From the IMG/VR virus record IMGVR_UViG_3300035680_000003: a stretch of DNA of 64,000 nucleotides. The stretch is one strand, 5' to 3'. The stretch is from a virus (lineage: Duplodnaviria > Heunggongvirae > Uroviricota > Caudoviricetes). Shown piece after piece: positions 40,324 through 60,679 of the stretch. The notes under the pieces were generated by a model. That model had not been told where the DNA came from and searched no databases. It worked only from the letters and a program-made list of their open reading frames with translations. The position numbers and the translations under genes were made by a program. The stretch's first letter is position 1, and each line of letters begins with the position of its first letter.

Positions 40324-40330
40324 CGAATTT

Positions 40331-40870: not shown

Positions 40871-40933
40871 TCAAATATTTACCACCTAATTATTAATCGA
40901 GCTTTCTAGGAGTAATAAGAGCAGATAAATATT

Positions 40934-41500
40934 TTGATGAAATATTATAAAAAAATAGAAATTGAAAACTTAGAGGTAATACAGAAAAAAGTTTTACAAT
41001 TTATTAAATTTAAACACCCCACTATATATTTTAGAAAAGTTGAGTCATCTTGGAACCATCTCGATGTTCCGAGTTTGTTGGCGGCATGCCCAGAACTTTC
41101 TGAGTCTTTCGGCAAATTGAATTTATCCTGCATTTTTGCGTCAATTCATATAATGTATGATAATACACATTCTGCTATACATACTGATATTACGCCCTGG
41201 AAAGCTAGAATTAACATTCCTATTTTAAATTGCAACGGAACATTTACTAAATTTTATACAGGTGAAAAGGTAGTAGAAGAAATTAGGACCATGGCAAATA
41301 ATAAAACGTTTAAGGTAGATGCAATTATAAATCCACTTGAATGTATTGAAGTAGACGCATACGAATTAACACAGCCGTTAATTCTTAAAACTTATATACC
41401 ACATAGGGTTTTTATGAATGAAACTTCGAGACCTAGAATAGCATTGTCAATTGGCTGCGATCCTGATCCATTCTATCAATATTTTTCGTCAGACGAATAA
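40934..41500 (+). CDS. 2OG-Fe(II) oxygenase-fold protein, paralog 3
   Basis: SAIHTDITP ... IPHRVFMNETSRPR. Confidence 0.5.
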   Translation: MMKYYKKIEIENLEVIQKKVLQFIKFKHPTIYFRKVESSWNHLDVPSLLAACPELSESFGKLNLSCIFASIHIMYDNTHSAIHTDITPWKARINIPILNCNGTFTKFYTGEKVVEEIRTMANNKTFKVDAIINPLECIEVDAYELTQPLILKTYIPHRVFMNETSRPRIALSIGCDPDPFYQYFSSDE

Positions 41501-42067
41501 ATCTGTAGTATCCACTACATCTTCAATATTTCTAAATTTAATAGGATGTAGTCCCCATCGCACGGTAAACATTATCCTTATATCATCATTAAAATTTTTA
41601 ACACCATGCATGACATCACCTTTAACAAAACAAGGCTTTGTTATCTCAAGGTCTTCGATAATTTCTAATTTAGAATTGTCTATAGGAGTTAGACCATGCA
41701 GGTAACTGCTTTGTACGGCACCCATGACTAGATTTTCTTTTGGACAATGATACCATAACATTTTTGTATTATGACAATTTAATACAGGAATATTTAATCC
41801 AAACGGTACTGTAATGAATGAACTATCAACATGAGGAGCTAGCTCAGCATGCCCCGGTGTAAAATAAAACCTAAGTAATCGAATTTGACTTTTACTCCTC
41901 GACTTTAGCCACCTCATTAATTTTGGACAATGTTCAGTCATATGCTCTTCACTGAACGTACATGCATGTAGGCCTTTAGATGCATAATCATAATTAATAG
42001 ATTTAATTAATTCGTGTTGAATCTCTTCAAAGTTGGGGATATGGATGTATCTATAAAGTTCTTGCAT
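41489..42067 (-). CDS. 2OG-Fe(II) oxygenase-fold protein, paralog 4
   Basis: APHVDSS ... VMHGVKNFNDDIR. Confidence 0.45.
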   Translation of the reverse strand: MQELYRYIHIPNFEEIQHELIKSINYDYASKGLHACTFSEEHMTEHCPKLMRWLKSRSKSQIRLLRFYFTPGHAELAPHVDSSFITVPFGLNIPVLNCHNTKMLWYHCPKENLVMGAVQSSYLHGLTPIDNSKLEIIEDLEITKPCFVKGDVMHGVKNFNDDIRIMFTVRWGLHPIKFRNIEDVVDTTDLFV

Positions 42068-42733
42068 ACTTCCAAATATTTAGTAATAAATACTTTACAA
42101 ACTTTAAAAATTATGCTACCTTCTATAACATTAAACCCTGATGATTATTATTATGCACTTAATCAGCCCTGTACAATCTTACCTCAACTATTAGAATATG
42201 TTCAAAGTGTAGAAGACTGGGAGGGATTAGATTGGCATACATTTTATTTAGATGTACCAAATAGGACTGCTTGTAATTTCGAATCAGATCCTGTAATTAA
42301 ATTTTTTCTAGATCAGGGATGGAGGTTAAACTTCACATGTATGCCCCCTAAGGGGCATTATCGATGGCATATCGATAATCAAGGAAATAGACAAACCGCA
42401 ATAAATTTAGCACTAAATGGTTTTGAAACAACTAAAGTTATGTGGCGACCAAATAGACCGTACGTGCGAAAAATGAATACAGAAATTATGGATATTCCCT
42501 ACACACCTGGTACGTATTTTGTATTTAATACACAAGAGGAACATTGTGTAACTAATTTCAGTAATGAAAATAGATATCTATTAAGCATTACACCAGATAA
42601 AAGATTTGCTGTTCCTGAGTATTTTGACGGAATTTATAAAAATGTAAGTCCTAGTCGATACGCTGAAATTCTAAAAGGTTACAAGCTAGCATTTAAAGAG
42701 GTCGTTAGCGAAGTTAAAGCACAAGGTTGGTAG
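42014..42733 (+). CDS. 2OG-Fe(II) oxygenase-fold protein, paralog 5
   Basis: WHIDNQGN ... EEHCVTNFSNENRY. Confidence 0.45.
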   Translation: MLNLFKVGDMDVSIKFLHTSKYLVINTLQTLKIMLPSITLNPDDYYYALNQPCTILPQLLEYVQSVEDWEGLDWHTFYLDVPNRTACNFESDPVIKFFLDQGWRLNFTCMPPKGHYRWHIDNQGNRQTAINLALNGFETTKVMWRPNRPYVRKMNTEIMDIPYTPGTYFVFNTQEEHCVTNFSNENRYLLSITPDKRFAVPEYFDGIYKNVSPSRYAEILKGYKLAFKEVVSEVKAQGW

Positions 42734-42745
42734 TAGATTTTAAAT

Positions 42746-43354
42746 TCAGTCTTTCCATCTAATAGTATTCCAATCAAACATAAAATTTAAGTTAAGTTGT
42801 TCGTACGCTATCCATTGTTTAGTGTACTGAATATTAAGAGGAAAATCAATTACATTAAAATTATTATAAAATAGATGATGTAATTGTCTAGGTGATCGAG
42901 TTTCACCTAATCTTTTTCTTTTAAATGTTTCTATCAAATTTTTATTATAGTCATTAAATGTGATAGCAATAGCTTTACAATTATTGTCTATTGCCCATTG
43001 TTTGTGCATTGGTAAAAAAAGTTCTCTAGGTAATCCTAAATGTCGGTAATCTTTTGTAACCCATGTTCTACATCCGCCTATGGCAACTTCATTGGAGAAT
43101 TCACTTCTATAAACTCCCGAACAGGCTACAATAGTTTCATTTTTTATCGCTAAGTGAAACGCTCCACTGGTTTCAAAATATCGATGCCTGTTGTATATTT
43201 GATGTATTAGTGTGTTAGATTTAGTATGCCAATCTTCTACCCACATATTGCTGTGTGCTAGCTGAGTAATTTCTTCTGATGCCTCTTGACAAAATTTAAA
43301 AAATAAACTTTTATCCTCTAACTCGTCATACCGAATAAGTGTTAGATCAGACAT
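42746..43354 (-). CDS. putative GNAT-fold acyltransferase
   Basis: IVACSGV...AIGGCRTWVTKDYRHLGLPRELF looks like GNAT motif A and CoA-binding core; weak. Confidence 0.3.
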   Translation of the reverse strand: MSDLTLIRYDELEDKSLFFKFCQEASEEITQLAHSNMWVEDWHTKSNTLIHQIYNRHRYFETSGAFHLAIKNETIVACSGVYRSEFSNEVAIGGCRTWVTKDYRHLGLPRELFLPMHKQWAIDNNCKAIAITFNDYNKNLIETFKRKRLGETRSPRQLHHLFYNNFNVIDFPLNIQYTKQWIAYEQLNLNFMFDWNTIRWKD

Positions 43355-43895
43355 TGCTAACTAAATCTTCAAAATTTGGATTACCGTGAAATCTCATAGT
43401 AAATACCCACCGATCTTCGAGTTGATTTGATTGTGCTGAATGCGGACAATCTACTCTTAATAGATGAGGGCTGTCAATTTCTAATTTAAAATCTTCTGTA
43501 TATGGTTCTTGCCACATAATTTCATGATAAACGTTGTTGGATAACATTACAAGAGATGTGCTGTATTTTCCTTTATACCAAATTTGGTAACTGTTTTTAC
43601 AACCTTTCAACGGAATGTTTATTGCAGATTTTATAATACCTTCTTCATTACCGTCTATATGAATACCTTGAAAACTATTCTTTGGTCTAATATAACTTAG
43701 ACAATAGCGAACAGGAGGTATATTATACCTAGCTAGGTCTGCATCAATTATATGCTTTAATTGATTGTTGAGCTCGTGTCTTATTTGTATTTGTCTATCT
43801 ACAGGAATTGAAGTATCTATCTTTTTCTCTATATCTAAAATTGCAAATTCTTTTATAAGATGTTCGCATGTTAAATGAATTTTTTTACAGTACAC
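43347..43895 (-). CDS. 2OG-Fe(II) oxygenase-fold protein, paralog 6
   Basis: GIHIDGNEEG ... CPHSAQSNQLEDRW. Confidence 0.5.
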   Translation of the reverse strand: MYCKKIHLTCEHLIKEFAILDIEKKIDTSIPVDRQIQIRHELNNQLKHIIDADLARYNIPPVRYCLSYIRPKNSFQGIHIDGNEEGIIKSAINIPLKGCKNSYQIWYKGKYSTSLVMLSNNVYHEIMWQEPYTEDFKLEIDSPHLLRVDCPHSAQSNQLEDRWVFTMRFHGNPNFEDLVSNV

Positions 43896-43960
43896 GATGT
43901 TTATCGTAAAATTTTGGAATATCTTTTATTTAACTCTCTGCAATTTTGTAATATAAATAT

Positions 43961-44587
43961 ATGAAACATATTATGATAGTAGCCACACCACTTAACCTTC
44001 CTACTGTAGTCCCTGACGATTGGTCTGTATTTTGGAATATTTGGAACAATTATGGAAAACCTATAGTTAAAACGCAACAAAACCATAAGGGATCTTATTC
44101 AAAAATTGGAGATACAGATGTCTGGAAAGGTTTAGATATCTATAAAAATAATTTATTTCGATCTGCATGGACTGCACCTTACTATGATATTCGAGAAGAA
44201 CTTCCCTTAATGTATCAAATGATTACAAAAATTCCTCTATTCTCTCTTGTCACTGGTGTTAGGGTTGTAGAAAGCCTAGGAAATATTCCGCCACACACTG
44301 ATGATAATATAGATCGATGGAACGTTAGAGCAATGTTGCATTATACTGATTCGAACCCTCAATGGTTTTTTACTAAACCGAATGATACAAAAACTGCTGT
44401 GTTGTTAACATTGCCAGAGTCCACTAATTGGTTTGCATATAACGATAAGTACACATGGCATGGGTCGAAGTATAACCCGGATCACCCTAAATTATTAATT
44501 CAAATGTTTGGAGTAGGATTTAAGAACAGTCAGTTCCTACAAAAAAGTGCAGAAATGTACAAAGAATATACAATATCATATGACTAA
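43961..44587 (+). CDS. 2OG-Fe(II) oxygenase-fold protein, paralog 7 (divergent)
   Basis: PPHTDDNID ... TWHGSKYNPDHPK. Confidence 0.4.
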   Translation: MKHIMIVATPLNLPTVVPDDWSVFWNIWNNYGKPIVKTQQNHKGSYSKIGDTDVWKGLDIYKNNLFRSAWTAPYYDIREELPLMYQMITKIPLFSLVTGVRVVESLGNIPPHTDDNIDRWNVRAMLHYTDSNPQWFFTKPNDTKTAVLLTLPESTNWFAYNDKYTWHGSKYNPDHPKLLIQMFGVGFKNSQFLQKSAEMYKEYTISYD

Positions 44588-45368
44588 TTTATTTCAAGCT
44601 AGTTCAACTACTGTTAGGTATTCTCATATTGTAGCAAGGTTAGCAATTATTATAGGTGCATTCTTTGTAACATTTAATTTACCCTTATTACTTGTGTCTG
44701 CTATTGCATATCATGTTTTACTATCTATCGGTATAAGCATAATGATGCATAGATACTTCAGCCATAAAAGTTTTGAATTTAAAAATAATATTGTCAGAAA
44801 AGTTTTTATTATAATTTCATTGCTTTCGTTGCGAGGAAGTCCAATAGCTTGGGCATACATCCATCGAGCACATCACGAACACGTAGATACCGAAGATGAT
44901 CCGCATACTCCTGTTGGTAGAAAATTTAACTTTTTTGGATTACTTGACAACAAAAATAAAGCTGATGATATTCAGATATTTAAAATTAGATCTATGATGA
45001 CCAAGGAGCACCTATTTATTAATCAATACTATTGGTTGATCTTAGCATGTTTGTTAGTACCTTTTGCATTTATTAATTTTACATTATTTTATTATACATG
45101 GCTAGTTCCTGTAGTTCTTGTACAATTTTCTATTAATTTACAAAACTATTTAGGACATATGTCAGGTATAGGTGCGTATAGGACTTACACTAATCCATCT
45201 AGCGGCAATAGTCAAAATAGTTTGTTATTGTGGCCTTTATATTTAGGTGAAGCGTGGCATAACAACCACCATGCACATGCTCGACATTATCACTACGGAA
45301 CTGAAATAAGTGGAAAGTGGTGGGAGATCGATCCCGGTGCAATGCTCATTAAGTTACTGAAAAAATGA
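44547..45368 (+). CDS. membrane acyl-lipid/acyl-CoA delta9-desaturase-like di-iron enzyme (DesC/SCD family)
   Basis: three His boxes HRYFSH, HRAHHEH and GEAWHNNHHAHARHY (compare HRLWSH, HRxHH and HNNHH); four hydrophobic segments. Confidence 0.75.
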   Translation: MQKCTKNIQYHMTNLFQASSTTVRYSHIVARLAIIIGAFFVTFNLPLLLVSAIAYHVLLSIGISIMMHRYFSHKSFEFKNNIVRKVFIIISLLSLRGSPIAWAYIHRAHHEHVDTEDDPHTPVGRKFNFFGLLDNKNKADDIQIFKIRSMMTKEHLFINQYYWLILACLLVPFAFINFTLFYYTWLVPVVLVQFSINLQNYLGHMSGIGAYRTYTNPSSGNSQNSLLLWPLYLGEAWHNNHHAHARHYHYGTEISGKWWEIDPGAMLIKLLKK

Positions 45369-45925
45369 TACGATTTTTAACAATGGATGACTTGCCGGAT
45401 TGCATGAAAATTGCACCATTAAAAAATAGAACCGGTGGCACTGTTCCATTAACACTCGAAGGATTTTTAGGTGCCTTTGAAAAATATTTCCAGGATGATG
45501 AATTTTGCCGTGTGATTGGATACTTTGAAAATAATGAACTTGTTAGTTTTGTATGTATCAGAATGTTCGAAACTACGATGAGAGGAAAATTTTGGGTTAT
45601 TTCGGGATTATATACTAAGAATTTTAAAAGTTATTTTAGCTTTAACCATTCAGGAATAGGCGAATTAATTAAATTTGCATTCGATTATGCTGAATCACGA
45701 GGTTGGTATGAATATTATTATTGCACTGCCGAACGTGTAATAAATGTATATGAAAGACAATGGAAACGATCACACTCTCATAGATACGAACATATATTGT
45801 TAGACGTTGTTCCACCTAATACAAAACCATTTTATGAATTGCACTGGAGACTAATGGGGCAAGAAGTTAAACCTGTCCCAATGATTGTTAAAAAGCGAGC
45901 GTTAAAACAAGAATTTAGAAAATAA
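45365..45925 (+). CDS. putative GNAT-fold acyltransferase (second)
   Basis: VSFVCIR...GIGELIKFAFDYAESRGWYEYY resembles the GNAT core; weak. Confidence 0.3.
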   Translation: MIRFLTMDDLPDCMKIAPLKNRTGGTVPLTLEGFLGAFEKYFQDDEFCRVIGYFENNELVSFVCIRMFETTMRGKFWVISGLYTKNFKSYFSFNHSGIGELIKFAFDYAESRGWYEYYYCTAERVINVYERQWKRSHSHRYEHILLDVVPPNTKPFYELHWRLMGQEVKPVPMIVKKRALKQEFRK

Positions 45926-45971
45926 AAATCAGTTATTTTATCCTATAAATATAATGCTCATAGGAAACTAA

Positions 45972-46748
45972 ATGAACACAGCATTTTTATCTAGCAGCAC
46001 TAGGGGTGCTCAACTATTCTTGATATTAAATTTAATAGGTACTTTCGGTGCTGTCTGGTTGTACGGATTAAATTTTAATTCTTTTATGATGGTACTAGTG
46101 GGATACTTTTTATATGGTTGTTTAGGTATCGTCGTAACTTATCACAGAAATCTTTCTCACAATAGTTATAGAACACATCCGATCATTGTAAAGATATTTT
46201 CATTATTAGGATGCTTTGCAGGGACCGGCAGTCCACTTGCATGGGTGGCCATTCATATCAATCATCACTTAAAGAGTGACAAGCCTACTGATCCGCATAG
46301 TCCGTTATACAAAGGGGTAAAGATCTTTATGATGGATTATATAAATGAAGTTGATAAAGATACAAAATGGAGAATGAGGGCATTAGTCACTGACAGATTC
46401 CAGCAATTCCTACATAGATATTATTTTGCAATCATTGCAACCTATAGCCTTGTACTATTTTTAATAGGAGGATTTTGGTTGATGGTATTTTTTCATTGGG
46501 CGCCTGCTGCAATGACCGCCCTTATGAGTAATGTTGTTAATTATGTGGGACACAAACCAAGTTGGTGGGGTGGATATAGAACACACAATCTAAATGATCA
46601 AAGTACAAATAATTGGCTATGGGCTATTCCTAGTTGGGGGGAAGCGTGGCACAACAATCATCATAGATATCCTAGGAATTTTAGTTTTGGAAACAAGTGG
46701 TGGGAGATTGATATTTCGGCACTTGTAATTAGATTGATTAAAATTTAA
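45972..46748 (+). CDS. membrane delta9-desaturase-like di-iron enzyme (second copy)
   Basis: HRNLSH, HINHHLKSD and GEAWHNNHHRYPRNF His boxes; paralog of 44547..45368. Confidence 0.75.
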   Translation: MNTAFLSSSTRGAQLFLILNLIGTFGAVWLYGLNFNSFMMVLVGYFLYGCLGIVVTYHRNLSHNSYRTHPIIVKIFSLLGCFAGTGSPLAWVAIHINHHLKSDKPTDPHSPLYKGVKIFMMDYINEVDKDTKWRMRALVTDRFQQFLHRYYFAIIATYSLVLFLIGGFWLMVFFHWAPAAMTALMSNVVNYVGHKPSWWGGYRTHNLNDQSTNNWLWAIPSWGEAWHNNHHRYPRNFSFGNKWWEIDISALVIRLIKI

Positions 46749-47620
46749 TGAAATTTAATAGCAAACATCCAATTGTGGCTATGCCCATGAATGGAGTATC
46801 CAATGTTGACTTAGCTATTGCTGTAACTCAAGCGGGTGCTGTACCTAGTTTGTCAATCTTTAATTATTATGAAGGTGGAAAAGTAAATCTAAAGCATGTA
46901 GATGCCAGTTTAAAAAGGTTTACAGATGCAACCAGTTCTACAGAAATAATTTTAAGTATGCACTGGGAACATTTTATATGGACTCCTGTTATAGATGTTC
47001 TATTAGAAAATAATATAAAATTAGTTGAACTTTTTATTAGACCATCAGATCATCATTTGTGGCCTGAATTATCTAAACAGATCGACAATATGAAGGTACA
47101 CGGTATAGCTGTAATGTTTAAAACTTCTAATCGGCTACCTATGTCCTATTTTGATTCGATAGTATTGAAAGGTCCTCAGGCTGCTGGGAGATCATTCGGT
47201 AGTCTAGTATCATTAGAAGATCGATATGATGCTATGAAAGAACAAGTAGGATCAAGAATCATTCCAAGCGGTGGTATTGGCAGTCCTGAACAGGTAAAAT
47301 ATTTTATGGACAGAGAAGCATTAGCTGTGGGTATTGGCACACTACTTGCAGCATCTGAAGAAAGTTGTGTGTCAAGCGATACTAAACAAAAAATTATAGA
47401 GTCCACATCAAAAGATATCAAATTAATAGGTCCGTTAAATTGCAGAGGGCTGTTATTTTCTAGACTAGAAAATGACGACGATAACAATTCCAAATCTCTA
47501 TATGAGGGTATCAAGGGAACTAATTCCGGATGCATCTATGTAGGCAACGGAATAGACTATATAAACAAAATAATGCCAGTAAAAGATATAATAGAGTGGT
47601 TAGTTAAAGATGTTAATTAA
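46748..47620 (+). CDS. nitronate monooxygenase / FabK-like FMN TIM-barrel oxidoreductase
   Basis: PIVAMPMNGVSNVDLAIAVTQAGAV resembles the NMO/FabK N-terminus (PIIQAPMAGVS..LAAAVSNAGGLG); Gly-rich IPSGGIGSPEQV later. Confidence 0.5.
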   Translation: MKFNSKHPIVAMPMNGVSNVDLAIAVTQAGAVPSLSIFNYYEGGKVNLKHVDASLKRFTDATSSTEIILSMHWEHFIWTPVIDVLLENNIKLVELFIRPSDHHLWPELSKQIDNMKVHGIAVMFKTSNRLPMSYFDSIVLKGPQAAGRSFGSLVSLEDRYDAMKEQVGSRIIPSGGIGSPEQVKYFMDREALAVGIGTLLAASEESCVSSDTKQKIIESTSKDIKLIGPLNCRGLLFSRLENDDDNNSKSLYEGIKGTNSGCIYVGNGIDYINKIMPVKDIIEWLVKDVN

Positions 47621-48776
47621 TAAGTTACTGGGCTATTATACATGTGACGGTTTAGAATTTGAATCAAAAATTCAAGCATGTTTTCATTCTCTTAAAGTCA
47701 ACAAGCCAGTTGACTGGGTCTTTAATGATTTAGAATTTAGCATACACGACTGGACTAAAGAACCAGAAGAAACATTAGACCAATTATATGATAAACGAGT
47801 GAGAGATCTGCGAGCAAAATACGATTATCTTATTTTAAGTTACAGCGGCGGCGCTGATAGCCATCAAATTTTAATGAGTTTTATTAGACAAGGTATACAC
47901 TTAGATGAGCTGCTAATCAACACAATGGAAAAAGGTTGGAAACCTTATACTAGTTTAGATCCTAGAAATGTTTCTAGTTTGAATTCAGGGGCCGAGCATT
48001 ACCTACAAACTATTCCAAGACTAAAAGAAGTAGAGCAGTTTATTCCAAAAACAAAGATTACAATCTGTGATCTAACTGATCAAGTTAACGATTCATTATT
48101 GTCAGTAGGTGATGCAAGCTGGGTATTGCAAAAAAGAGAAGCATTGAATCCTATAGGAATTACTCGATTTAACTATGTATACTTTGATGAAGTTCGTAGA
48201 CTGTTTGATAAAGAGAAGAAGATAGGTATTATACTTGGAGTAGAAAAACCTAAAAGCATTATCCATGAAGGTCAATTTTGGATGAGATTCAATGATCGAT
48301 CAGCTAACATGGTTACAATTGTCGATCACATAAAAGATTACGACAACAGTGTTATTGAATATTTTTACTGGAGCCCTGAGTGTGTGCCATTATTAATCAA
48401 ACAAGGACATGTGATAAAAAGATGGCTAGAATTAAATCCTAATTATCAGCAATACTGGAACACTAAAACTTCTAGTTATGCTTCTGTAAGATTTTGGCAT
48501 GAGAGATTATTAAGAAAAGTTATGTATCCGACAACTTGGAATAATTCTTGGTTTCAAGTGCATAAAGCAACAAAAGATTGGTATAGCGAATTTGACAATT
48601 GGTTCATCGAAGGAAGCGTTAAAACAAAAGCCAATGTCATATGGCATGAGGGCATTGATTATGTTAGGAATTCTTTAACTCCATTTTTGAGATACGATTT
48701 AGAAACAAATCAACCAGACGGATTACAATCCTTTGTTAAACAATATTTAATTGGTAGAGTTGAAACACGGTCTTAA
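47610..48776 (+). CDS. PP-loop ATP pyrophosphatase superfamily protein (388 aa)
   Basis: LILSYSGGADSHQIL SGGxDS motif about 85 aa from the N-terminus. Confidence 0.5.
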   Translation: MLINKLLGYYTCDGLEFESKIQACFHSLKVNKPVDWVFNDLEFSIHDWTKEPEETLDQLYDKRVRDLRAKYDYLILSYSGGADSHQILMSFIRQGIHLDELLINTMEKGWKPYTSLDPRNVSSLNSGAEHYLQTIPRLKEVEQFIPKTKITICDLTDQVNDSLLSVGDASWVLQKREALNPIGITRFNYVYFDEVRRLFDKEKKIGIILGVEKPKSIIHEGQFWMRFNDRSANMVTIVDHIKDYDNSVIEYFYWSPECVPLLIKQGHVIKRWLELNPNYQQYWNTKTSSYASVRFWHERLLRKVMYPTTWNNSWFQVHKATKDWYSEFDNWFIEGSVKTKANVIWHEGIDYVRNSLTPFLRYDLETNQPDGLQSFVKQYLIGRVETRS

Positions 48777-49681
48777 TCTTTTGTTTTGATCTTATTTTCT
48801 AAAATAAATTTTCTAATATTGTCATTATAATTCAACGATTCTTTAATCTTAGATTTATCAGTATCTGATTTGAAAAATAATCCTATATCAGTAAGCCCTT
48901 GCTTATATTCTGCTGATTGAAATATTGTTTTTAGATCAGCTGTAATTTTACCTTTAGTATATTCATCCATAGTCTTAGGAACAATTACTGAAAGATAGCT
49001 TTGGAATGGGAACACTTCTTTATAAAAACTTTCCCATGTTGATGTTTTTAATCCAACAGCATGACTAGTTAATAATAATTTTAAATTTTCGTGATTGGTG
49101 TAGGCTTTAACTGTCGGGTAGTTGCCAAACATACAATCAACATGCCCGCCAACTAAATCTAATACAGACTTATTTCCCCCTTGAGCATAGGGAACGACGA
49201 TATGATTGTTTTTAGTTTTTGATAGTAATACTTCAGTGGCGATATGTTCGGAAGACCCATAACCTCCAACAGCAAAGGACAATGATTTTTTAGTATTGAT
49301 AAAGTCTTGATAGGATGTTATTCCTGTTTTAGCATTACAGAGTAATGCAGAGGGCATAATTCCTATAGTGGCCAGCACTTCTAAATCAATTTTGTGATCG
49401 TAATTTAAGTCGTTAAAATTGATAGGGTTGGTAACAAAAACTTGAACTACAGTAGCCAGTAGCATAGTTTTTTCATTCATTAAATGACCCATAGCAATTT
49501 TGCCAGATGCTCCTGGCCGATTGACTACTACATATTTTTTATCTAAGTTTTTAGCGATATACCGTGTTGTGATATCGCTCACACCACCGGGAGCGTGCAT
49601 AACTGTAAACTCTAATGATTGAGCTACTGCAACTTTTGAAAAAAATAAAATTAATAAAAGAAAAAATTTGTTGATTAGCAT
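48773..49681 (-). CDS. secreted TctC/Bug-family (tripartite tricarboxylate transporter-type) solute-binding protein
   Basis: signal peptide LLLILFFSKVAVAQS; HAPGGVSDITTRYIAKNL...VVVNRPGASGKIA matches the TctC PGGxxD...NxPGAxG pattern. Confidence 0.5.
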   Translation of the reverse strand: MLINKFFLLLILFFSKVAVAQSLEFTVMHAPGGVSDITTRYIAKNLDKKYVVVNRPGASGKIAMGHLMNEKTMLLATVVQVFVTNPINFNDLNYDHKIDLEVLATIGIMPSALLCNAKTGITSYQDFINTKKSLSFAVGGYGSSEHIATEVLLSKTKNNHIVVPYAQGGNKSVLDLVGGHVDCMFGNYPTVKAYTNHENLKLLLTSHAVGLKTSTWESFYKEVFPFQSYLSVIVPKTMDEYTKGKITADLKTIFQSAEYKQGLTDIGLFFKSDTDKSKIKESLNYNDNIRKFILENKIKTKD

Positions 49682-49699
49682 GATATATAAATATTCTTT

Positions 49700-50266
49700 A
49701 TGTACTTCTCATACTTATCTCTTCCAAGATTACCTAAAGAATTTTTTGCTCAATGTTTGGAAAATGTAAAATACATTGGTGTAGATCCTAGACTAGAAAA
49801 TGTTAATAGTTATCGAGGGCCAATGAATCGAGCTACGTATCTGCCCGAAGAATGTAATACATGGATTATTAGAAATATTGTATTTCCGTTATATGGAAGT
49901 ATTCCTTCAACTCTAAAATTAAATTTATTAAATGTAACTACATACCAAAAGTTAAAACCTCAAGAAGAGACATGGGGTACACACCCTAAACATATCGACA
50001 AAGGCAGAAACTGGGCATTAAATTATTATTTTACCACTGGTGGAAGTAATACTACCGTTAGGTGGTACGAAGATAATGTTGTGGCAGCAGAAACACCACC
50101 TATAGAAATTAATAGATGGTGTTTATTAAAAGTTAATCAACTACACGATGTTAGAGGAATTGAAGAAGGTCAAATTCGATATTTTTTAACATTGAATATT
50201 TCTTCTGAAAATATAGATAATTTTAAATCAGTAATTGATCAAAATACAGTGATTGAAAAAAAATGA
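49700..50266 (+). CDS. 2OG-Fe(II) oxygenase-fold protein, paralog 8
   Basis: HPKHIDKGRN ... NQLHDVRGIEEGQIRY. Confidence 0.4.
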   Translation: MYFSYLSLPRLPKEFFAQCLENVKYIGVDPRLENVNSYRGPMNRATYLPEECNTWIIRNIVFPLYGSIPSTLKLNLLNVTTYQKLKPQEETWGTHPKHIDKGRNWALNYYFTTGGSNTTVRWYEDNVVAAETPPIEINRWCLLKVNQLHDVRGIEEGQIRYFLTLNISSENIDNFKSVIDQNTVIEKK

Positions 50267-51795
50267 CAGTAGATTGTTTGTTACTATATGGTAATCATTT
50301 ATTACCTATGTCTAAATATGCGGGAACATTTCGAATTGCTAGCGAGTTAAGAAATGCAGGCTATACTGTTCAGTGTATTGATATGACAGCGTATGAAGAC
50401 AACCGTGAAGAACTCATCGATACAATAAAGATGTTTATAGGTAATAATACATTATGGGTGGGAATTAGTACAACCTTTTTGCGTCATGTATTTGGATATC
50501 CCTATTTTCGTACGATAGATTCATTTAATGTAAAATCTACAACTATCCCAAATATTGATAAAGAAATTTTAAATTTTATTAAAACCGTTAAGGATATTAA
50601 TCCAAACGTAAAATTTATTGCCGGTGGCTCGAAAAGATTTATGATCGAGAAATACGGTTTTAAAGTTTTTACAAAAAATAATGATACTGAAATTATTGAG
50701 TTTACAGATTATTGTGCAAAAAAATCTAAAAAAATACCAGTAAGTTTTTTAGAATCACTGATTGAAGGTTCAGAATTTCAACAGTTTACAACAAGCCAAA
50801 ATATCTTTACTAAGAACGATATTGTCGAATCGTCAGATACCCTTCCTATTGAAGTTAGTAGAGGTTGTATTTTTAAATGTAAATTTTGTTCATTTCCACT
50901 TAATGGTAAAAAGAAAGGCGAATGGGTTAAACGTTCTAATGTATTGTATGAAGAGTTTATAAAGAATTATGAGTTGCATGGAGTAACAGAATACAGTTTT
51001 TCCGATGACACATACAATGATAGTGAAGAAAAAGTTAAAAGATTGTATGACGAAGTGTATAGTAGGCTACCATTTAAATTAAACTTTACTACATATTTGA
51101 GACTTGATTTAATGATAAAATTTCCCGACACAGTGAAATACTTACAAGAGTCAGGTTTAAAATCAGCAGTCTTTGGTATAGAAACAATAAATCATAATTC
51201 AGGTAAGGCTATTGGCAAAGGTTTAAATCCCATTGAACAATTTCAGTTTATTGAAGAAATTAAAAAAAATGAATTTAAAGAGATACTAACTCGTTCTGGA
51301 TTTATATTAGGGTTGCCAAAAGACAGACACGACGAGATTAATATCCTAGAAGAATTCTTATTTTCAGAAAAGAATAAATTAGATGACTTTAGTGTAGAAC
51401 CTTTGATTATATTTCCTCCAAAATTTGATCAAACAAAATTTAAAGATTTTTCTGAATTTGATATAGAATATGAAAAATATGGATATAAGATTTATGAAAA
51501 CATCGAAACATCTTCTATTACTGAAATTAGATGGACCAACGATTATATCGGAATGACTTTTGATCAAGTAGCTAAAGCTGCAAAAAAAATAAATGTAAGA
51601 AAATATTTCGATGGTAGATTCAAGTGCGGTGGATTTGGTTACAATTGGCATAGGTCTCTCGGAATTCCAGCAGATGATCTAGTGGCACTGAGTCGGAATG
51701 AAATATATACAAAGTATAACGTCAAACAACTGCTAAAAACAAAAAAAGATAATTATCGATCATTAATACTTAATGTAATGAAAAATAATGAATAA
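50263..51795 (+). CDS. B12-binding-domain radical SAM enzyme (class B-like)
   Basis: CxxxCxxC at about aa 205 (VSRGCIFKCKFCSFP) after a Rossmann-like N-terminal domain; 510 aa; paralog at 62481..63983. Confidence 0.7.
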   Translation: MTVDCLLLYGNHLLPMSKYAGTFRIASELRNAGYTVQCIDMTAYEDNREELIDTIKMFIGNNTLWVGISTTFLRHVFGYPYFRTIDSFNVKSTTIPNIDKEILNFIKTVKDINPNVKFIAGGSKRFMIEKYGFKVFTKNNDTEIIEFTDYCAKKSKKIPVSFLESLIEGSEFQQFTTSQNIFTKNDIVESSDTLPIEVSRGCIFKCKFCSFPLNGKKKGEWVKRSNVLYEEFIKNYELHGVTEYSFSDDTYNDSEEKVKRLYDEVYSRLPFKLNFTTYLRLDLMIKFPDTVKYLQESGLKSAVFGIETINHNSGKAIGKGLNPIEQFQFIEEIKKNEFKEILTRSGFILGLPKDRHDEINILEEFLFSEKNKLDDFSVEPLIIFPPKFDQTKFKDFSEFDIEYEKYGYKIYENIETSSITEIRWTNDYIGMTFDQVAKAAKKINVRKYFDGRFKCGGFGYNWHRSLGIPADDLVALSRNEIYTKYNVKQLLKTKKDNYRSLILNVMKNNE

Positions 51796-51844
51796 TTATC
51801 TAGGTAGAGTTAAATTAACATTTTTACAAAATTAGAACTAACAA

Positions 51845-52765
51845 ATGGAAAGACATAATCAATGGATGAGCTACAGTTTTGATGCTATAGAATATGGCAA
51901 AAAAACTGATTCAAATTCTATTTTTAAAATTCATTTTAATAAAAAAATAGATAAAAATCTCCCTTCTTATAGAGATGCATTATTTAATAATGCCCGTATT
52001 ATGCGAGACTCGTATAATGAACCATTTGATGTAATGTTGTCAGGCGGAGTTGATAGCGAAATGGTTGTGCGAACATTTCATGCTGTGGGAATTAAACACA
52101 ATACATTTATTTTTAGATTAGAAAATGATTATAACATTCGAGATGTTAATTATGCCATAGCTGTTTGTAAAGAACTAAACATTAATTATAAAATAATAGA
52201 TTTTAATTTACAAAAATTCTTCGAAAATGATGCACTTGATTTATTTCAAAAGACACTAATTCCAAGATCAGGAAGAATAGTGAGACTTGCGTGGTTTAAC
52301 TATCTTGATAATATTCCAGTTTTTTGTGACGGTGAACCCTACTGGCGCAGGGATGCAAATAAAGATTTTAGTAAAAAATCTACGTGGAGATTAATTTTAA
52401 ACGAAGACGGATACTCGTGTTCTACCTATGCTAAATCAATTGGTAGAGTAGCGATTGGGGATTGGTATGAATATACCCCCGAATTGTTATTGTCATACAA
52501 CGAATTGCCGTTAGTTAAAAAATTACTCAACGACGAAATCTCAGGGAAGATTAGTTCCTGGAGTAGCAGGTCTGCTATTCACAGAGATATCTGGCCTACT
52601 GTACAGGATAAAATAAAATTAGCAGGATACGAAGGTGCAGACGGCAATCCTGTATTGAGTCGTCCGGATTTTATGAATCACTTTCAGGTAACGTATATGA
52701 ATCAAGTGTCCAATACTCATTACGAATATACTGAAGAAGAACTAAGAAATTTAATCCTTAATTAG
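51845..52765 (+). CDS. PP-loop ATP pyrophosphatase superfamily protein (306 aa)
   Basis: FDVMLSGGVDSEMVV motif; paralog of 56385..57314 (N-termini MERHNQWMSYSFDAI and MRRFRDWMTYSFDGI). Confidence 0.55.
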   Translation: MERHNQWMSYSFDAIEYGKKTDSNSIFKIHFNKKIDKNLPSYRDALFNNARIMRDSYNEPFDVMLSGGVDSEMVVRTFHAVGIKHNTFIFRLENDYNIRDVNYAIAVCKELNINYKIIDFNLQKFFENDALDLFQKTLIPRSGRIVRLAWFNYLDNIPVFCDGEPYWRRDANKDFSKKSTWRLILNEDGYSCSTYAKSIGRVAIGDWYEYTPELLLSYNELPLVKKLLNDEISGKISSWSSRSAIHRDIWPTVQDKIKLAGYEGADGNPVLSRPDFMNHFQVTYMNQVSNTHYEYTEEELRNLILN

Positions 52766-53590
52766 ATTTTCTCGGACCCAACGTCCCCAATGTATACAAT
52801 GATACTCGTATTTTGATAGTGATTCGGTAACAGGAAAGAATTTTGTTTTTATCTTTTCGATCGCAGCAACATCTTCCCTAAACACAGTTTCTAATGTTTC
52901 AAATTCGATACGATCATTATGTGGAACATCAGGGGCATAATAGAATTGTGTAATCCATTCGAATTTCCATTCTATATTTTTATCTGCAGGAACAATAGTG
53001 TTTACTGACAGGCATCCTTTCTTATGCTCGACAAAGGTGTAGGGGTATATATAGAGTGACCACCAACCTGGAGAATGTTCTTGGAATATCCATCCATCTC
53101 CTTGATCCATAACAACATTATCTAAATCAATTTGTTCAGAGAGTCTCGGATGAATTCCATCCTTTTGTACATGTAAATAATCTGCTTCAGCATCCATGAG
53201 CCATAACCAGCTTCCCTCGCTTTTACCTTGAAGAGAATGACTATATTCTAGCGTTGTTTCTTTTTCCAGATCATCGACCCATTGATGGTCTGGTTCGATA
53301 AAATCTTTAAATACTAACCCTGATCGACCAACAGTTGCAGTCCCACAATTTAATTTTTTAGAATTATTAATTGGTGTGCCATTTGCATCCCATTGAAATC
53401 CGTGGAACTTACATGTAATGCTGTTGATATGTGTTCCTGGATCAGCTAGTGGATACATTCTGTGGGGACAAAATCTGTGAAATAAATTTACTATATTACC
53501 TTGTTTATTTAGAATATATTCAGAAACTGCAAAGTTCTTGTCCTGCAATGCACTGAGATGAGCAAAAATTTTAGGAGATTTAATAAACAT
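52751..53590 (-). CDS. Rieske [2Fe-2S] domain protein (Rieske oxygenase-like)
   Basis: CPH-x16-CKFH (FCPHRMYPLADPGTHINSITCKFHGFQWD) is the Rieske CxH...CxxH signature. Confidence 0.55.
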   Translation of the reverse strand: MFIKSPKIFAHLSALQDKNFAVSEYILNKQGNIVNLFHRFCPHRMYPLADPGTHINSITCKFHGFQWDANGTPINNSKKLNCGTATVGRSGLVFKDFIEPDHQWVDDLEKETTLEYSHSLQGKSEGSWLWLMDAEADYLHVQKDGIHPRLSEQIDLDNVVMDQGDGWIFQEHSPGWWSLYIYPYTFVEHKKGCLSVNTIVPADKNIEWKFEWITQFYYAPDVPHNDRIEFETLETVFREDVAAIEKIKTKFFPVTESLSKYEYHCIHWGRWVRENLIKD

Positions 53591-53622
53591 TGTAAGAGTA
53601 ATGTGCGTATATAAATAGTTGT

Positions 53623-54210
53623 ATGTATGCTATTTACTTAAACGACATAGAAAGATTTATTGCGATTGAAAAAGATCTTTGGATTGCACATGCATCGGCA
53701 AAATTGCTATCTTCAAAATTATCTATCTCTATATGTGATATCGGAAATGCATTGTCTGTAACTAACTATAACTGTTTTCAATGGACATTGTCAAGTGTAG
53801 ACTTGCCCGCCTCTACACAATATCCAAAATTAGTTGTACCAAAAGATTCTAAATTAGAATTTGTCGGTGATCCTATTAATACAGATATGGAAATGTTAAA
53901 ATTGCATCAGCAATTTTGTTTGTTAGTATTAAAGGTTGTTTTTGCGGCAAAAATGACCGACATTGAATTAAATTCAGGAGATCGAAAATATTTTCAATCT
54001 TTACTTAAAAACGACACTTTACTATCTGCGTCGGACGAGTCCGGAATTCCTGGAGGGTTTTTACATACAATAGAAAGAATTCTTTATTTGAGTTCAAATG
54101 TAACGCACGTTATGTCTCATATTGAATTAATGTTTAATAATTCAGAGAGTATATTTCCTAGAAATCTTGCACAATATAAATTACTATTTTACAAATACTT
54201 AAATGCATAA
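53623..54210 (+). CDS. hypothetical protein
   Basis: 195-aa ORF inside the accessory cluster. Confidence 0.35.
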   Translation: MYAIYLNDIERFIAIEKDLWIAHASAKLLSSKLSISICDIGNALSVTNYNCFQWTLSSVDLPASTQYPKLVVPKDSKLEFVGDPINTDMEMLKLHQQFCLLVLKVVFAAKMTDIELNSGDRKYFQSLLKNDTLLSASDESGIPGGFLHTIERILYLSSNVTHVMSHIELMFNNSESIFPRNLAQYKLLFYKYLNA

Positions 54211-55495
54211 ATTTTATTACAAAACCTTTGATCCAAACCTTAGAAGTTTTTCTAAATTGCTCAGTAACAATGTAACTGATTTACCACCAGGCGGCAGATT
54301 CTATTTTAATCTTGCAAGATCAATGCGTATGAGCGGTGAGAATTACCTATTTAGAGATGGGGAGTGGAGTGATCCTTTTAAAACTGTGGTCCACCCTACC
54401 TTTGCTATGCCATCATATACGTCAAATTTTAATTTAAATTTTTCAGAAGTATCGGACTTAAGGTCTCTCGATATTAAAAAAATCATCAACGATACTGATC
54501 GGTCGATAGTAATTCAATGGTCTGGAGGAATTGACAGTACTGTAGCACTTGTATCTTTATTAAAAAATCTGTCACATTCTGAATTGTCAAATGTAATTAT
54601 TGCAATGAGTAGCGACAGCCTTTTAGAAAATCCTAATTTTTATAATAAGTTTATTAAAGATAAATTCAAAATTATTGATTCTGAAAATATGTTGTTTAAC
54701 GATTATAAAGAAAAATACAATGCATATTGCATCATGGGAGACACAGGCGATTGTCTATTTGGTTCAGAATTAGGAAATAAATTATACCCTAAGATGAAAT
54801 TTATACAAGATAACACTGGTCATCTTTATAACAAAATTAGTTCACCTGATGTACATTATTCAATCTATAGGGATATCATTGTACAGTATTTTAATGATAA
54901 TCTTCAAACTTCAATACTTTCTTTAAAACAACAAGGTGTAGTTAACAGTAGTATTAGCGAATTTATTTCAGGGGACGAAACGTTTGGAGAACTATTCTAC
55001 GAAAAAATTGTTAAGAATATAGAAACATGCAGTGTTCCTATATACAGTCTACATGACTTTTTCTGGTGGACAATCTTTAGTGGAAGATATATATTCTGTG
55101 CCCTAAGAGGACCTAGTGTGTTTAGCATCGGCGCCAATAAAGAGGCATTAATTAATGATTGTCTTATTCAATGGTTTAATACCGACGAATATCAACTATG
55201 GTCTATGAATAATAATAACAATGGGGAAAAGTTATCTGGGCCTATACAAGGCCTTGGAAAAACTGCTGCAAAAAAATACATTTACGATTTTGATAAAAAC
55301 GAATGGTATTTTACGCATAAGATGAAAGTCGTGTCGTCACCAAATATTCTTAGAAGAAACTGGCGTAAACATTTTGCAGATTTTGATCCTATGCTAGGTG
55401 TTGATACAAATTACAATTTGATTAAAATAGGACCAGCGACAGTTAACAATTATGTCATTAATAGACTAATGAACTACAAAATAGATTGGTGTTAA
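54203..55495 (+). CDS. PP-loop ATP pyrophosphatase superfamily protein (430 aa)
   Basis: SIVIQWSGGIDSTVALVSL motif at about aa 105. Confidence 0.5.
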   Translation: MHKFYYKTFDPNLRSFSKLLSNNVTDLPPGGRFYFNLARSMRMSGENYLFRDGEWSDPFKTVVHPTFAMPSYTSNFNLNFSEVSDLRSLDIKKIINDTDRSIVIQWSGGIDSTVALVSLLKNLSHSELSNVIIAMSSDSLLENPNFYNKFIKDKFKIIDSENMLFNDYKEKYNAYCIMGDTGDCLFGSELGNKLYPKMKFIQDNTGHLYNKISSPDVHYSIYRDIIVQYFNDNLQTSILSLKQQGVVNSSISEFISGDETFGELFYEKIVKNIETCSVPIYSLHDFFWWTIFSGRYIFCALRGPSVFSIGANKEALINDCLIQWFNTDEYQLWSMNNNNNGEKLSGPIQGLGKTAAKKYIYDFDKNEWYFTHKMKVVSSPNILRRNWRKHFADFDPMLGVDTNYNLIKIGPATVNNYVINRLMNYKIDWC

Positions 55496-56388
55496 TTTTG
55501 AGTTATTTCTTTCTTATATCGTTCTCTGAAAGACTTTAATAAAGAAATACTTGAATGGTAATGCAATTTTGAATCTTGATTATAAAAGACAGGACTTATA
55601 AAGTCTCCTAATCCAAACAACTTATTCTTGCCTAAATTCATTGTAGCTTGATGAAATATAGCGGATATATTTTCTTTAGTTTCTTTGGGCATTTCTTTTG
55701 ATGCCATAGTGAAATGAAAGATATATGGAGCTGTAATTTTTTGCTCAGTTAACGTTTTAATATTTGGGAGATCTGGGTGTCGTTCTGTGCAACTCATTCC
55801 GATTATTTGTAAGTTAGGATTCTTTGCCTTGTACTGATTAAATGCAGATACACGCTCAACAATAAAGTTAATACTATTATTGTCAGAAGCCATGTGGAGC
55901 AGTGCATCTGCATTGCTTCGATACACAATATAGCGAACAGGTATATTATATTTTTTTCCTAGTTCTAGACCTAGTAGATGAGTAGCACCACCTATAGCAG
56001 GGCCGCCTATGGTAAGTTCTTTAGGAAGCTCATTTTCTTTAAAGTTAGTAATAATTGCCCAGCAGGCACTTCCGTGACTAAACACTGGTTCTAATTTATT
56101 TAGGTCAATTAGTCCTCTACTTTCAGCTTCGACTACACTATTGGTAATAGTCACAACACGATTTTTTGGTTGTTCTAATGCCTCTCGAACACCTATACTT
56201 TCAAAGCCACCAGCTTTAAATTCTGTAACAAATTTATATTTGTTTTGTATTTTATTTGCTTCATCTAACACAGCGAATATTTGAGGAGTCATACTTTGCG
56301 TAGGTCCTTGAGCATTTATTACTACAATAGTTTCTTGTGCCTGTGCTAGATTTAAAAATAACAATAAACTTACAATTATAAACTTCAT
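55492..56388 (-). CDS. secreted TctC/Bug-family solute-binding protein (second copy)
   Basis: signal IIVSLLLFLNLAQAQ; paralog of 48773..49681 (shared GGATHLLGLELGKKY region). Confidence 0.45.
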   Translation of the reverse strand: MKFIIVSLLLFLNLAQAQETIVVINAQGPTQSMTPQIFAVLDEANKIQNKYKFVTEFKAGGFESIGVREALEQPKNRVVTITNSVVEAESRGLIDLNKLEPVFSHGSACWAIITNFKENELPKELTIGGPAIGGATHLLGLELGKKYNIPVRYIVYRSNADALLHMASDNNSINFIVERVSAFNQYKAKNPNLQIIGMSCTERHPDLPNIKTLTEQKITAPYIFHFTMASKEMPKETKENISAIFHQATMNLGKNKLFGLGDFISPVFYNQDSKLHYHSSISLLKSFRERYKKEITQN

Positions 56389-57314
56389 GGGATTCCTTTA
56401 AATTTTTTGTTTACTTCTTCAAGTGAATACGTAAAACTAAGATTGGTTAAGTCTGACATTTGATTTTCCATATAAAAATCTTTAAAAAATTTAGGAAGAC
56501 TTTCTAAAGGTGTTCCAGTCGGACCTTCGTAACCAATTAATTTTGATTTATTTTTTATGTCTGGCCATATCTGTTGATGTAAAGATATTCTACTAGAGAG
56601 GGTGCTTTTTTTGCCTACATTTTTATCATCTAGCAAATCTTTTATAAGATCATTTTGATGGTAACTCATTGTAATGTAGGGAGTGTATAGGTACCATTCT
56701 CCTATAATCTCTCTATTATGATGGTGTGATGTTAACGACATAAAAAGCTGGCGCTCAGTAAGATACAGAGACCAATTAGATTTTTTTGTATAATCACTGA
56801 GCAAGTCTCGTTTCCAATAAGGAGATCCTTCACCAAAAACAGGTATGTTATCTAAATAATCTAACCATTTAATTTTTGATAAGGACGGACTATGCGGCAC
56901 TAACGTTTTTTCAAATATGTCTTTAGCATCGTGTTCATAAAATTTAGATAAGTTAAAATCAATAATTTTATAAGGTATATTTAATGTTTCACATATCTGT
57001 ATTGAAGAATTAATATCTCGAATATTTAAATTATCTTCGTACCTAAAAATAAATGTATTATGTGTTATACCTAAATCTTTAAAAGTGCGAACTATCACTT
57101 CGCTATCTATGCCACCGGATAATAAAACATCAAACGGCTCTGAAAAAGAATCTCGCATAATACTTGCATTTTGTATCAATGCATCATGATACGACATTGG
57201 CATAATGTCGTTAGAGATATTAAAATGAATGTCCAGGAAAGATCTTCTAGAAGATTTAGGAGAATTTAAAATTCCGTCAAAAGAATACGTCATCCAATCT
57301 CTAAATCTTCTCAT
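56385..57314 (-). CDS. PP-loop ATP pyrophosphatase superfamily protein (309 aa)
   Basis: FDVLLSGGIDSEVIV motif; close paralog of 51845..52765. Confidence 0.55.
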   Translation of the reverse strand: MRRFRDWMTYSFDGILNSPKSSRRSFLDIHFNISNDIMPMSYHDALIQNASIMRDSFSEPFDVLLSGGIDSEVIVRTFKDLGITHNTFIFRYEDNLNIRDINSSIQICETLNIPYKIIDFNLSKFYEHDAKDIFEKTLVPHSPSLSKIKWLDYLDNIPVFGEGSPYWKRDLLSDYTKKSNWSLYLTERQLFMSLTSHHHNREIIGEWYLYTPYITMSYHQNDLIKDLLDDKNVGKKSTLSSRISLHQQIWPDIKNKSKLIGYEGPTGTPLESLPKFFKDFYMENQMSDLTNLSFTYSLEEVNKKFKGIP

Positions 57315-57320
57315 AGAAAA

Positions 57321-57653: not shown

Positions 57654-57715
57654 TTATTTATTGTTTTAGATAAGAGATCTTATATTTTGATGTGCTAGCA
57701 ATATACTTTTAGAAT

Positions 57716-59061: not shown

Positions 59062-59167
<106 letters not shown>

Positions 59168-59775: not shown

Positions 59776-59841
59776 TATTCTTTGCCACACTACTTATCCT
59801 ATTATACACCGTGTGCCATGGTGAATTCTTTCTTGTATTTA

Positions 59842-59919: not shown

Positions 59920-59926
59920 ATTTAAA

Positions 59927-60002: not shown

Positions 60003-60009
60003 AAAAATA

Positions 60010-60670: not shown

Positions 60671-60679
60671 GCAATATAT

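Follow-up and report, generated by a model that had tools for sequence, protein, structure and literature searches.

Two solute-binding proteins that belong to the family of tripartite tricarboxylate transporters (TTT), named here TctC1 and TctC2, are encoded on the 64,000-nucleotide stretch of caudovirus DNA analysed (IMG/VR record IMGVR_UViG_3300035680_000003; the whole stretch is referred to below as the window), each set beside genes for unannotated proteins that carry the PP-loop motif of ATP pyrophosphatases. The source is an uncultivated T4-like jumbo phage, and the 64-kb window covers part of a genome no shorter than 240 kb, with approximately 175 kb lying outside view. The arrangement points to a mechanism of export, periplasmic capture of an organic acid, TTT import probably through a host permease, and ATP-dependent activation of the imported compound by the PP-loop enzymes, and for this mechanism as a whole we estimate a probability of roughly 50%.

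TctC1 and TctC2 as TTT-family binding proteins

An initial annotation of the window, made from the DNA sequence alone, had described the TctC1 gene product as a TctC/Bug-family binding protein, and this assignment was borne out. The open reading frame was exact, and the 302-residue product matched the Pfam TctC family (PF03401) with an E-value of 2.4e-23, its 83.5 bits comparing with a gathering score of 27. Sequence matches were also obtained to nine solved TTT binding proteins (E 7e-14 to 6e-4), including Polaromonas TctC (4x9t), TphC, Bug27, AdpC, the Ideonella terephthalate binder (TBP), BugE and BugD. An AlphaFold2 model of TctC1 generated from 38 homologs (mean pLDDT 91.9) had the two-lobed type II periplasmic-binding-protein fold, with solved TTT binding proteins as its nearest relatives; in a Foldseek search against the PDB the best 17 structures were all of this family (E 6e-17 to 4e-14, TM 0.68–0.80), with PhnD, PtxB and AioX appearing only from rank 18 at E ~1e-8, approximately 1e8-fold weaker, and TM 0.4–0.6. 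The initial annotation had named the PstS or PhnD class as the outcome that would overturn its assignment. No Pfam match to that class was obtained, and the top PhnD/PtxB structure (E 1e-8, TM 0.5–0.6) compares with 6e-17 and a TM of 0.8 for TphC and Bug27. Neither TctC1 nor TctC2 matched the DctP family (PF03480) of tripartite ATP-independent periplasmic (TRAP) transporter binding proteins.

The second copy, TctC2 (298 residues), is divergent. No similarity to TctC1 was detected by BLASTP, and TctC2 alone scored 23.1 bits against PF03401, under the gathering score, although many members of its family do carry this domain. A family profile built from 32 homologs matched TphC (7ndr) at 4e-10 and BugD at 5e-7, and hhalign aligned the TctC2 and TctC1 families with 96.7% probability over 255 columns. 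The AlphaFold2 model of TctC2 (pLDDT 92.7) retrieved the same 17 TTT structures at the top of the Foldseek ranking, the next class being ~1e3-fold weaker in E-value. The family profile, the hhalign alignment and the model fold together identify TctC2 as a divergent TctC despite its sub-threshold Pfam score, and membership of both proteins in the TTT/TctC binding-protein family is, in our judgement, close to certain.

The N-terminus of TctC1 (MLINKFFLLLILFFSKVAVA, followed by QS after the predicted cleavage site) has a basic n-region, a hydrophobic core averaging 3.4 on the Kyte-Doolittle scale across 9 residues, and an A-x-A site, with no lipobox Cys and no twin-arginine motif; the model shows an N-terminal helix of low confidence here. 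By a heuristic test of hydrophobicity and A-x-A site 36 of the 38 family members showed this predicted signal-peptide layout, the two that did not being 5'-truncated gene calls, and the layout persists down to 35–45% identity, the properties of the region being kept while its sequence drifts. For TctC2 the N-terminus (MKFIIVSLLLFLNLAQA, followed by QE) is likewise a predicted signal peptide, and all 32 members tested were positive. Signal peptides on both proteins had been anticipated by the initial annotation, and their prediction is thus supported at family level.

In solved TTT binders a 'pincer' of two loops holds the proximal carboxylate of the ligand via two water molecules, with the signature P-F-x-A-G-G-x-x-D (PMC5812351; PMC8556258). 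The equivalent loop of TctC1 reads V-M-H-A-P-G-G-V-S-D, where GG and D are invariant, M replaces P and H replaces F. Within its motifs HAPGGVSD and NRPGASG, residues G32, G33, D36, N54, R55, P56 and G57 were invariant or nearly so, and GG..D, GxGSxxH and PYxxGG..LDLxGGHxD were conserved in the family. Mapping of pocket residues onto TphC through a HMMER alignment placed the nearly invariant His29 at the TphC docking residue Phe30, Gly139 at Q150 (which narrows the TphC pocket), Ser144 at T155, the nearly invariant Glu145 at S156 (Ser/Thr in TTT binders), Gly168 at G178 and the invariant Asn187 at N197. A clade-specific invariant Cys pair (C115/C183) was also observed. TctC1 thus probably retains carboxylate binding, for a ligand that would be unlike any known one.

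The corresponding loop of TctC2, V-I-N-A-Q-G-P-T-Q-S, departs from the signature and the second pincer loop differs too, so that NAQGPTQSMT and EFKAGGFESIG stand in place of PGGxxD and NxPGAxG; its invariant Cys pair (C109/C200) is different from that of TctC1. The initial annotation had ascribed the pattern PGGxxD...NxPGAxG to both copies. This holds for TctC1 and fails for TctC2, which is nevertheless, as it had claimed, a second TctC-family protein.

A conserved cassette with PP-loop-like proteins

The genomic context of TctC1 was surveyed in 33 loci containing its relatives, 6 from exact look-ups and 27 from IMG/VR. The gene overlapping TctC1 in the window encodes a protein designated PP388 (Table 1), and a PP388 homolog adjoined the TctC1 homolog or lay within two genes of it in 32 of these loci; in the remaining one the contig stops 400 nt past TctC. 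Across loci PP388 is 49–74% identical, against 37–56% for TctC1. The PP388-TctC1 pair is usually joined by a PP-loop protein of ~306 residues and an NMO/FabK-like flavoprotein. Gene order is convergent in some loci and tandem in others, which suggests that function rather than inherited order keeps the pair together. Two such modules are present in the window, the first comprising NMO, PP388 and the opposed TctC1 with PP306 3 kb beyond, and the second comprising PP430, the opposed TctC2 and then PP309 in the TctC2 direction; PP306 and PP309 are 50% identical.

Table 1. Features of the accessory island, the tRNA array of the window and DctP-family genes of related loci
Feature	Coordinates	Strand	Remarks
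TctC1, 302-aa TTT-family (TctC/Bug) solute-binding protein	48773..49681	-	ATG start; Pfam, PDB and Foldseek matches
TctC1 predicted Sec signal peptide, aa 1-20	49622..49681	-	Cleavage after VAVA; heuristic n-h-c and AxA analysis
TctC2, 298-aa divergent TTT-family binding protein with predicted signal peptide	55492..56388	-	Profile, hhalign and fold
PP388, 388 aa, SYSGGADS motif	47610..48776	+	Convergent with TctC1, 4-nt overlap at 48773-48776
PP306, short PP-loop ATP-pyrophosphatase-like protein, LSGGVDS	51845..52765	+	Weak N-terminal QueC, AsnB, NadE and MnmA matches
PP430, long PP-loop-like protein, WSGGIDS	54203..55495	+	Counterpart of PP388; convergent with TctC2, 4-nt overlap at 55492-55495
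PP309, PP306 paralog	56385..57314	-	Upstream of TctC2, same direction; Pfam QueC 3.2e-5
NMO/FabK-like FMN oxidoreductase	46748..47620	+	Pfam NMO E 3.7e-14; NCBIfam FabK 4e-10, far below cut-off
Two delta-9-type fatty-acid desaturases with a 186-aa ORF between	44547-45368, 45972-46748 (block 44547..46748)	+	Pfam FA_desaturase; NCBIfam DesA family
188-aa uncharacterised protein	in 49700..53590		Between the two modules
B12-binding radical SAM protein, 510 aa	50263-51795		Nearest models 'lipid biosynthesis', PhpK and HpnJ, far below cut-offs
Rieske oxygenase	52751-53590	-	Between the modules; weakly like sterol demethylase
tRNA array, 13 genes	59094-62444	-	tRNA-Met(CAT) and the Gly, Thr and Leu tRNAs each occur twice
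DctP-family homologs	L007 3162-4109; L042 2849-3781; L062 1542-2498		PF03480 match

The SYSGGADS motif of the PP388 family is invariant (S79, G81, D83, S84) and follows a hydrophobic strand, as in the PP-loop of ATP pyrophosphatases. No match for PP388 was found in Pfam (31 members searched), NCBIfam, PHROGs, INPHARED or the PDB by sequence and profile searches; WbuX was the best match but at a non-significant E-value of 0.04, and was not adopted as a name. Over the PP-loop region, hhalign paired PP388 with PP430 at 89% probability (E 2e-6) and with PP306 at 87% (E 4e-6, 174 columns). PP306 and PP309 matched QueC, NadE, AsnB and MnmA at their N-termini with E-values of 2e-5 to 1e-3, below cut-offs, and PP430 gave weak matches of DndC, PAPS-reductase and QueC type over residues 89–158. 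These motifs and profile links suggest that PP388, PP430, PP306 and PP309 are PP-loop-type enzymes. An export signal was looked for in PP388 and none was found. Salvage of 7-deazaguanine (QueC) or of NAD (NadE, Bug27-type) was considered and not adopted, since the weak hits reflect only the N-terminus that PP-loop proteins generally have in common, and genes for DpdA/TGT or NAD were not seen. The PP388 family comprises at least 794 cluster representatives, every one of them annotated as hypothetical, and a motif scan of 185,579 species genomes revealed no relative, a 26% identical PP-loop fragment in a Megamonas metagenome-assembled genome being irrelevant. Both binders had been placed by the initial annotation in a cluster of tailoring enzymes. 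The enzyme cluster is real, but its conserved members are this specific, unannotated PP-loop-like family.

Transport genes beside related cassettes

Sister cassettes on other viral contigs were found to include genes of TTT and TRAP transport. Full-length TctA (PF01970, E 3.7e-85) is encoded 2 kb from PP388 and PP306 in loci L089 and L116. In L072, L112 and L113 a TctC-like protein with a signal peptide, TctA (495 aa) and, 5 nt after TctA, a PP388 paralog follow one another in one direction, the TctC-like protein of L072/L112 matching the TctC1 family with 97% probability by hhalign. A PP430-like gene lies beside TctA (E 6e-81) in L118–L121, and L117 carries TctA together with a Pfam-positive TctC. 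The closest IMG/VR relative of the window, L007, has a DctP-family TRAP binder (PF03480, E 4e-52) convergent with PP430 and overlapping it by 4 nt, in the exact slot held by TctC2 in the window; DctP-type proteins also follow PP430 in L042–L044 and lie between PP388 and TctC1 in L062. This recurrence of TTT and TRAP binders, which are unrelated families both of carboxylate type, and of TctA beside the same enzymes is the strongest evidence that TctC-mediated uptake feeds the PP-loop enzymes.

Further features of these contigs were recorded. The TctC-like, TctA and PP388-like genes at 1371–5072 of L072 (equivalent to L112 and L113) form an apparent operon, downstream of which are found NMO, another PP388, an AMP-binding (adenylating) enzyme that is truncated, and a protein of the radical SAM/SPASM type. 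Viral TctA proteins (L089 9156–11686; L114, L115, L117 and L118 ~7960–10520) are full-length (PF01970, E 1e-81 to 1e-85) and are always followed by a conserved signal-peptide protein of ~349 residues with no Pfam or family match, perhaps a binding partner of a new kind. TctB was not recognised on these contigs. The close-relative contig of P0016 (ENA ERZ21849424, 18.3 kb) encodes a third TctC and, beside the cassette, a mandelate-racemase/muconate-lactonizing (enolase-superfamily) enzyme, another type acting on carboxylic acids.

Neither the window nor any of the 33 TctC1 loci contained a TctA-like open reading frame, judged by at least 9 predicted membrane spans, and a scan with two short TctA motifs identified 10 contigs, none of them among the 27 TctC1-bearing IMG/VR contigs, some of which are 111–285 kb long, with lengths of 244 and 285 kb among them. 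The TctC1-clade binders therefore look like orphans that would need a host TctAB. Most bacterial Bug proteins are also orphans without an adjacent tctAB, yet serve transport (PMC5812351). An improbable variant, in which only the source of the permease differs, is that the phage encodes its own TctA(B) elsewhere in a genome of 240–376 kb; it is favoured by the several viral contigs with the same cassette that do encode TctA and by the portion of the genome beyond the window, and is opposed by the TctA motif scan, which picked out none of the 27 TctC1-clade contigs, several of them above 100 kb, and by the position of TctA, where present, within a few kb of the cassette.

Several points weigh against uptake coupled to PP-loop enzymes. 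The PP-loop assignment of PP388 derives from one motif and profile-profile links of 87–89%. When IMG/VR was sampled from the PP388 side (263 relatives, 78 loci read), a TctC-like gene lay within 6 kb in only 39 of the 78 loci, and the binder is hence a frequent accessory rather than an obligate part of the PP-loop core. Both canonical pincer loops are absent from TctC2, so that a carboxylate, an uncertain ligand for this protein on sequence grounds, may not be what it binds. The DctP-type substitutes all lack a signal peptide, starting MALTKIRWVLAHEP and MKTIRWVIAHEP when the N-terminus is taken at the first start codon past the upstream stop, which implies that these homologs are cytoplasmic binding proteins. 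No ligand, host or host TctAB was identified, and with 64 kb of at least 240 kb visible and the TctA scan relying on two short motifs, a phage TctA is possible elsewhere.

Signal-less DctP binders in the same slot are hard to reconcile with purely periplasmic capture and keep alive an alternative without transport, in which the binders sequester or sense a periplasmic compound (an island product or a host signal), signal to a host sensor kinase as BctC does to BctE, or present ligand to the PP-loop enzymes. That pairing may outweigh compartment is suggested by the sharing of the slot beside PP430 with signal-less DctP-like binders (L007, L042, L062), and both the orphan state of the TctC1 clade in the window and all clade loci and the lost carboxylate pincer of TctC2 would fit such a role. 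A ligand could not, however, pass directly from an exported protein to an ATP-dependent enzyme in the cytoplasm, the apparent operons that TctA forms with PP388 in sister cassettes point to import, and orphan status is normal for bacterial Bug proteins that serve transport (PMC5812351). We regard this alternative as unlikely. The initial annotation had left two roles side by side, periplasmic delivery or sequestration of a pathway compound and the hijacking of a host TctAB transporter; of these, coupling to a TTT permease is the better supported, with TctA carried by sister cassettes and by none of the TctC1 loci.

Phage origin, distribution and selection

The phage origin of the binders, also proposed in the initial annotation, was confirmed by rIIA and rIIB (33094–36328), by baseplate and collagen-like tail-fibre genes (3458–8055) and by 13 tRNAs in the window, and by the presence of an identical TctC1 protein on 60 contigs, the longest of 376 kb and one a 240-kb JGI contig. 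No match to the island, TctC1, PP388 or PP306 was found in 50,697 deposited phage records by megablast and tblastn, and rIIA of the window is only 28% identical to that of PA5oct-like phages, so that neither a cultured relative nor a host can be inferred. One related contig originates from ice-covered lakes in Quebec. The TctC genes are inside a low-GC accessory island at ~40–58 kb (29–35% GC, compared with 38–51% elsewhere). Coding strand and GC skew both change over ~40000–58000, and the GC maximum of the window (51%) is in the tail-fibre region at 6–8 kb.

A search of 1.84 billion representative proteins for TctC1 relatives gave 10,481 matches at E<=1e-3 and only 27 at E<=1e-30; after these best 27, scores fall to ~1e-17, where ordinary TctC proteins of ~325 residues begin. 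A scan for TctC1-clade motifs in one genome per species, covering 185,579 species, identified no member. The TctC1 and TctC2 clades, with 368 and 72 cluster representatives, respectively, are confined to metagenomic or viral contigs and are phage-only. Comparison with an 81% identical relative (L122) gave dN/dS values of 0.06 for TctC1, 0.044 for TctC2 and 0.06–0.08 for PP388 and PP430 (pN 0.04–0.12, pS 0.55–0.70), with dN/dS rough because synonymous sites are near saturation. Low pN relative to pS indicates working genes rather than decaying passengers, and TctC1 and TctC2 are under strong purifying selection.

These data bear on the idea that the genes were recently captured from a host and are carried as neutral passengers, or that they encode another class of binder such as PstS or PhnD. 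Location in the low-GC island would suit recent capture. A dN/dS of ~0.05, the depth and diversification of clades found only in phages and the lack of a cellular relative with the clade motifs all oppose it, PstS and PhnD are excluded by Pfam and fold, and this explanation is effectively refuted, with a very small chance of being right.

Other genes of the island and the window

Other island genes are listed in Table 1. Both desaturases are short and of the membrane type, with HRxxSH, HxxHH and WHNNHH boxes, and the desaturase-ORF-desaturase triplet is kept in close relatives together with a GNAT protein and a 208-aa protein. The genes between the modules (188-aa protein, radical SAM and Rieske) are conserved in close relatives (L005–L007 and L122). 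Among the 33 loci, desaturases, Rieske, radical SAM and GNAT genes occur in close relatives only.

Such neighbours could suggest that the island remodels host lipids and that the periplasmic ligands of the TctC proteins are lipid or fatty-acid-like intermediates. The two delta-9/DesA-type desaturases, the FabK-like NMO, the B12-radical SAM protein with its HpnJ models and the Rieske protein all have a lipid flavour, as does an FA_hydroxylase in L002. The lipid-type matches are, however, all far below family cut-offs, the TctC-PP388-PP306 core persists in most loci without desaturases, Rieske or radical SAM, and the ligands known for TTT binders are carboxylates that are small and polar. With the lipid-type genes lying outside the conserved core, we rank this interpretation low and consider it quite improbable.

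Elsewhere in the window a protein of 228 residues, predicted to cross the membrane six times (20910–21596, minus strand), resembles YccA/BAX-inhibitor-type FtsH modulators (NCBIfam E 8e-12, sub-cut-off), a gene unusual for a phage. A set of sugar-nucleotide genes (11894–12829, 24330–25061, 25822–26655, 30258–31280) encodes an epimerase, a UDP-glucose-dehydrogenase-like protein and two glycosyltransferases, and suggests that the phage modifies a glycan, its own DNA or the virion. A second radical SAM protein with a B12-binding domain (500 aa) is encoded at 62481–63983. A promoter and terminator scan performed no better than on shuffled sequence.

Discussion

We propose that TctC1 and TctC2 act as the extracytoplasmic arm of a cassette restricted to phages, at whose core would be one long PP-loop protein (PP388 or PP430) together with a shorter one (PP306 or PP309) and, in many cases, an FMN oxidoreductase. 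The binders would be made by the phage during infection and exported by the host Sec system. Each would capture a small organic acid in the periplasm and dock on a TctA(B) permease, which in this phage is most probably that of the host, as for orphan Bug proteins. The PP-loop enzymes would then adenylate the imported compound at a carboxyl or carbonyl group for amidation or another substitution, and the two modules of the window would probably serve two different ligands. The data show the family and fold of the binders, the conservation of their predicted export signals, purifying selection, a distribution limited to phages and tight synteny with PP-loop genes and, elsewhere, with TctA. Transport itself, use of a host permease, the PP-loop chemistry and the nature of the ligand are what we infer. 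A broader formulation may be offered tentatively, with the odds somewhat against it, namely that a hitherto undescribed, phage-restricted 'capture and activate' system couples the new PP388/PP430 PP-loop ATPase family in a modular manner to TTT and TRAP binders and sometimes to TctA, and that freshwater jumbo phages use it to take up an external organic acid, or else a cofactor or nucleobase precursor, for intracellular conversion.

To our knowledge phage-encoded binding proteins are essentially known from PstS. Cyanophage PstS is a phage-encoded periplasmic phosphate-binding protein that relies on the host membrane transporter, and the concept is the same here in that the virus supplies the binding protein only. 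The two differ in transporter (ABC for PstS, secondary TTT for the phage TctC proteins), in fold subfamily and in ligand, and no dedicated enzyme cassette is known to be linked to PstS. TTT would thus be a second transporter class used by phages, and often, given hundreds of cluster representatives, none of which was found on a deposited phage or reference cellular genome. Whether a virus can provide the component that gives a host secondary transporter its specificity could be tested on this example, and the ligand, if found, would show which external compound limits jumbo-phage replication.

TTT genes on viral DNA have been mentioned in passing annotations, for a SUP05 viral contig with a hit to the tctA domain (PMC4164917) and for a norB/nirK island of a myovirus with genes labelled 'tricarboxylate transport' (PMC8115048), in both cases without family analysis, a binding-protein clade or linkage to PP-loop genes. 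Our literature search turned up no account of phage TctC or of the PP-loop proteins partnered with it.

The orphan Bug/TctC proteins of Bordetella and other Proteobacteria (BugD, BugE, Bug27, BctC) resemble the phage proteins in their type II fold, length of ~300 residues and export signal, have the GG..D and GxGSxxH loops in common with TctC1, and are also encoded without adjacent tctAB and next to enzymes that use the ligand. Unlike them, the phage proteins are phage-encoded, ~20% identical to any solved member and in separate clades, with His29 in place of the docking Phe, Glu145 and Cys115/Cys183 in TctC1 and with the signature lost altogether in TctC2. The best structural matches, TphC (terephthalate), AdpC (adipate) and MatC (malate), were found at Foldseek E ~1e-16 and TM 0.7–0.8; their specificity residues are not conserved in the phage binders, as in the exchange of TphC Q150 for Gly139, and the ligand is consequently not transferable by homology.

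For the partner proteins, the SGGxDS motif after a hydrophobic strand is a feature in common with the PP-loop ATP pyrophosphatases (QueC, NadE, AsnB, MnmA, TilS, DndC and the WbuX-type amidotransferases), although none of the partners reaches the cut-off of any known family. Pairing with TctC gives the 'hypothetical' PP388 family its first functional handle, that of acting on a compound imported by TTT or TRAP systems, and this partner family and its modular coupling to binding proteins could represent a new system.

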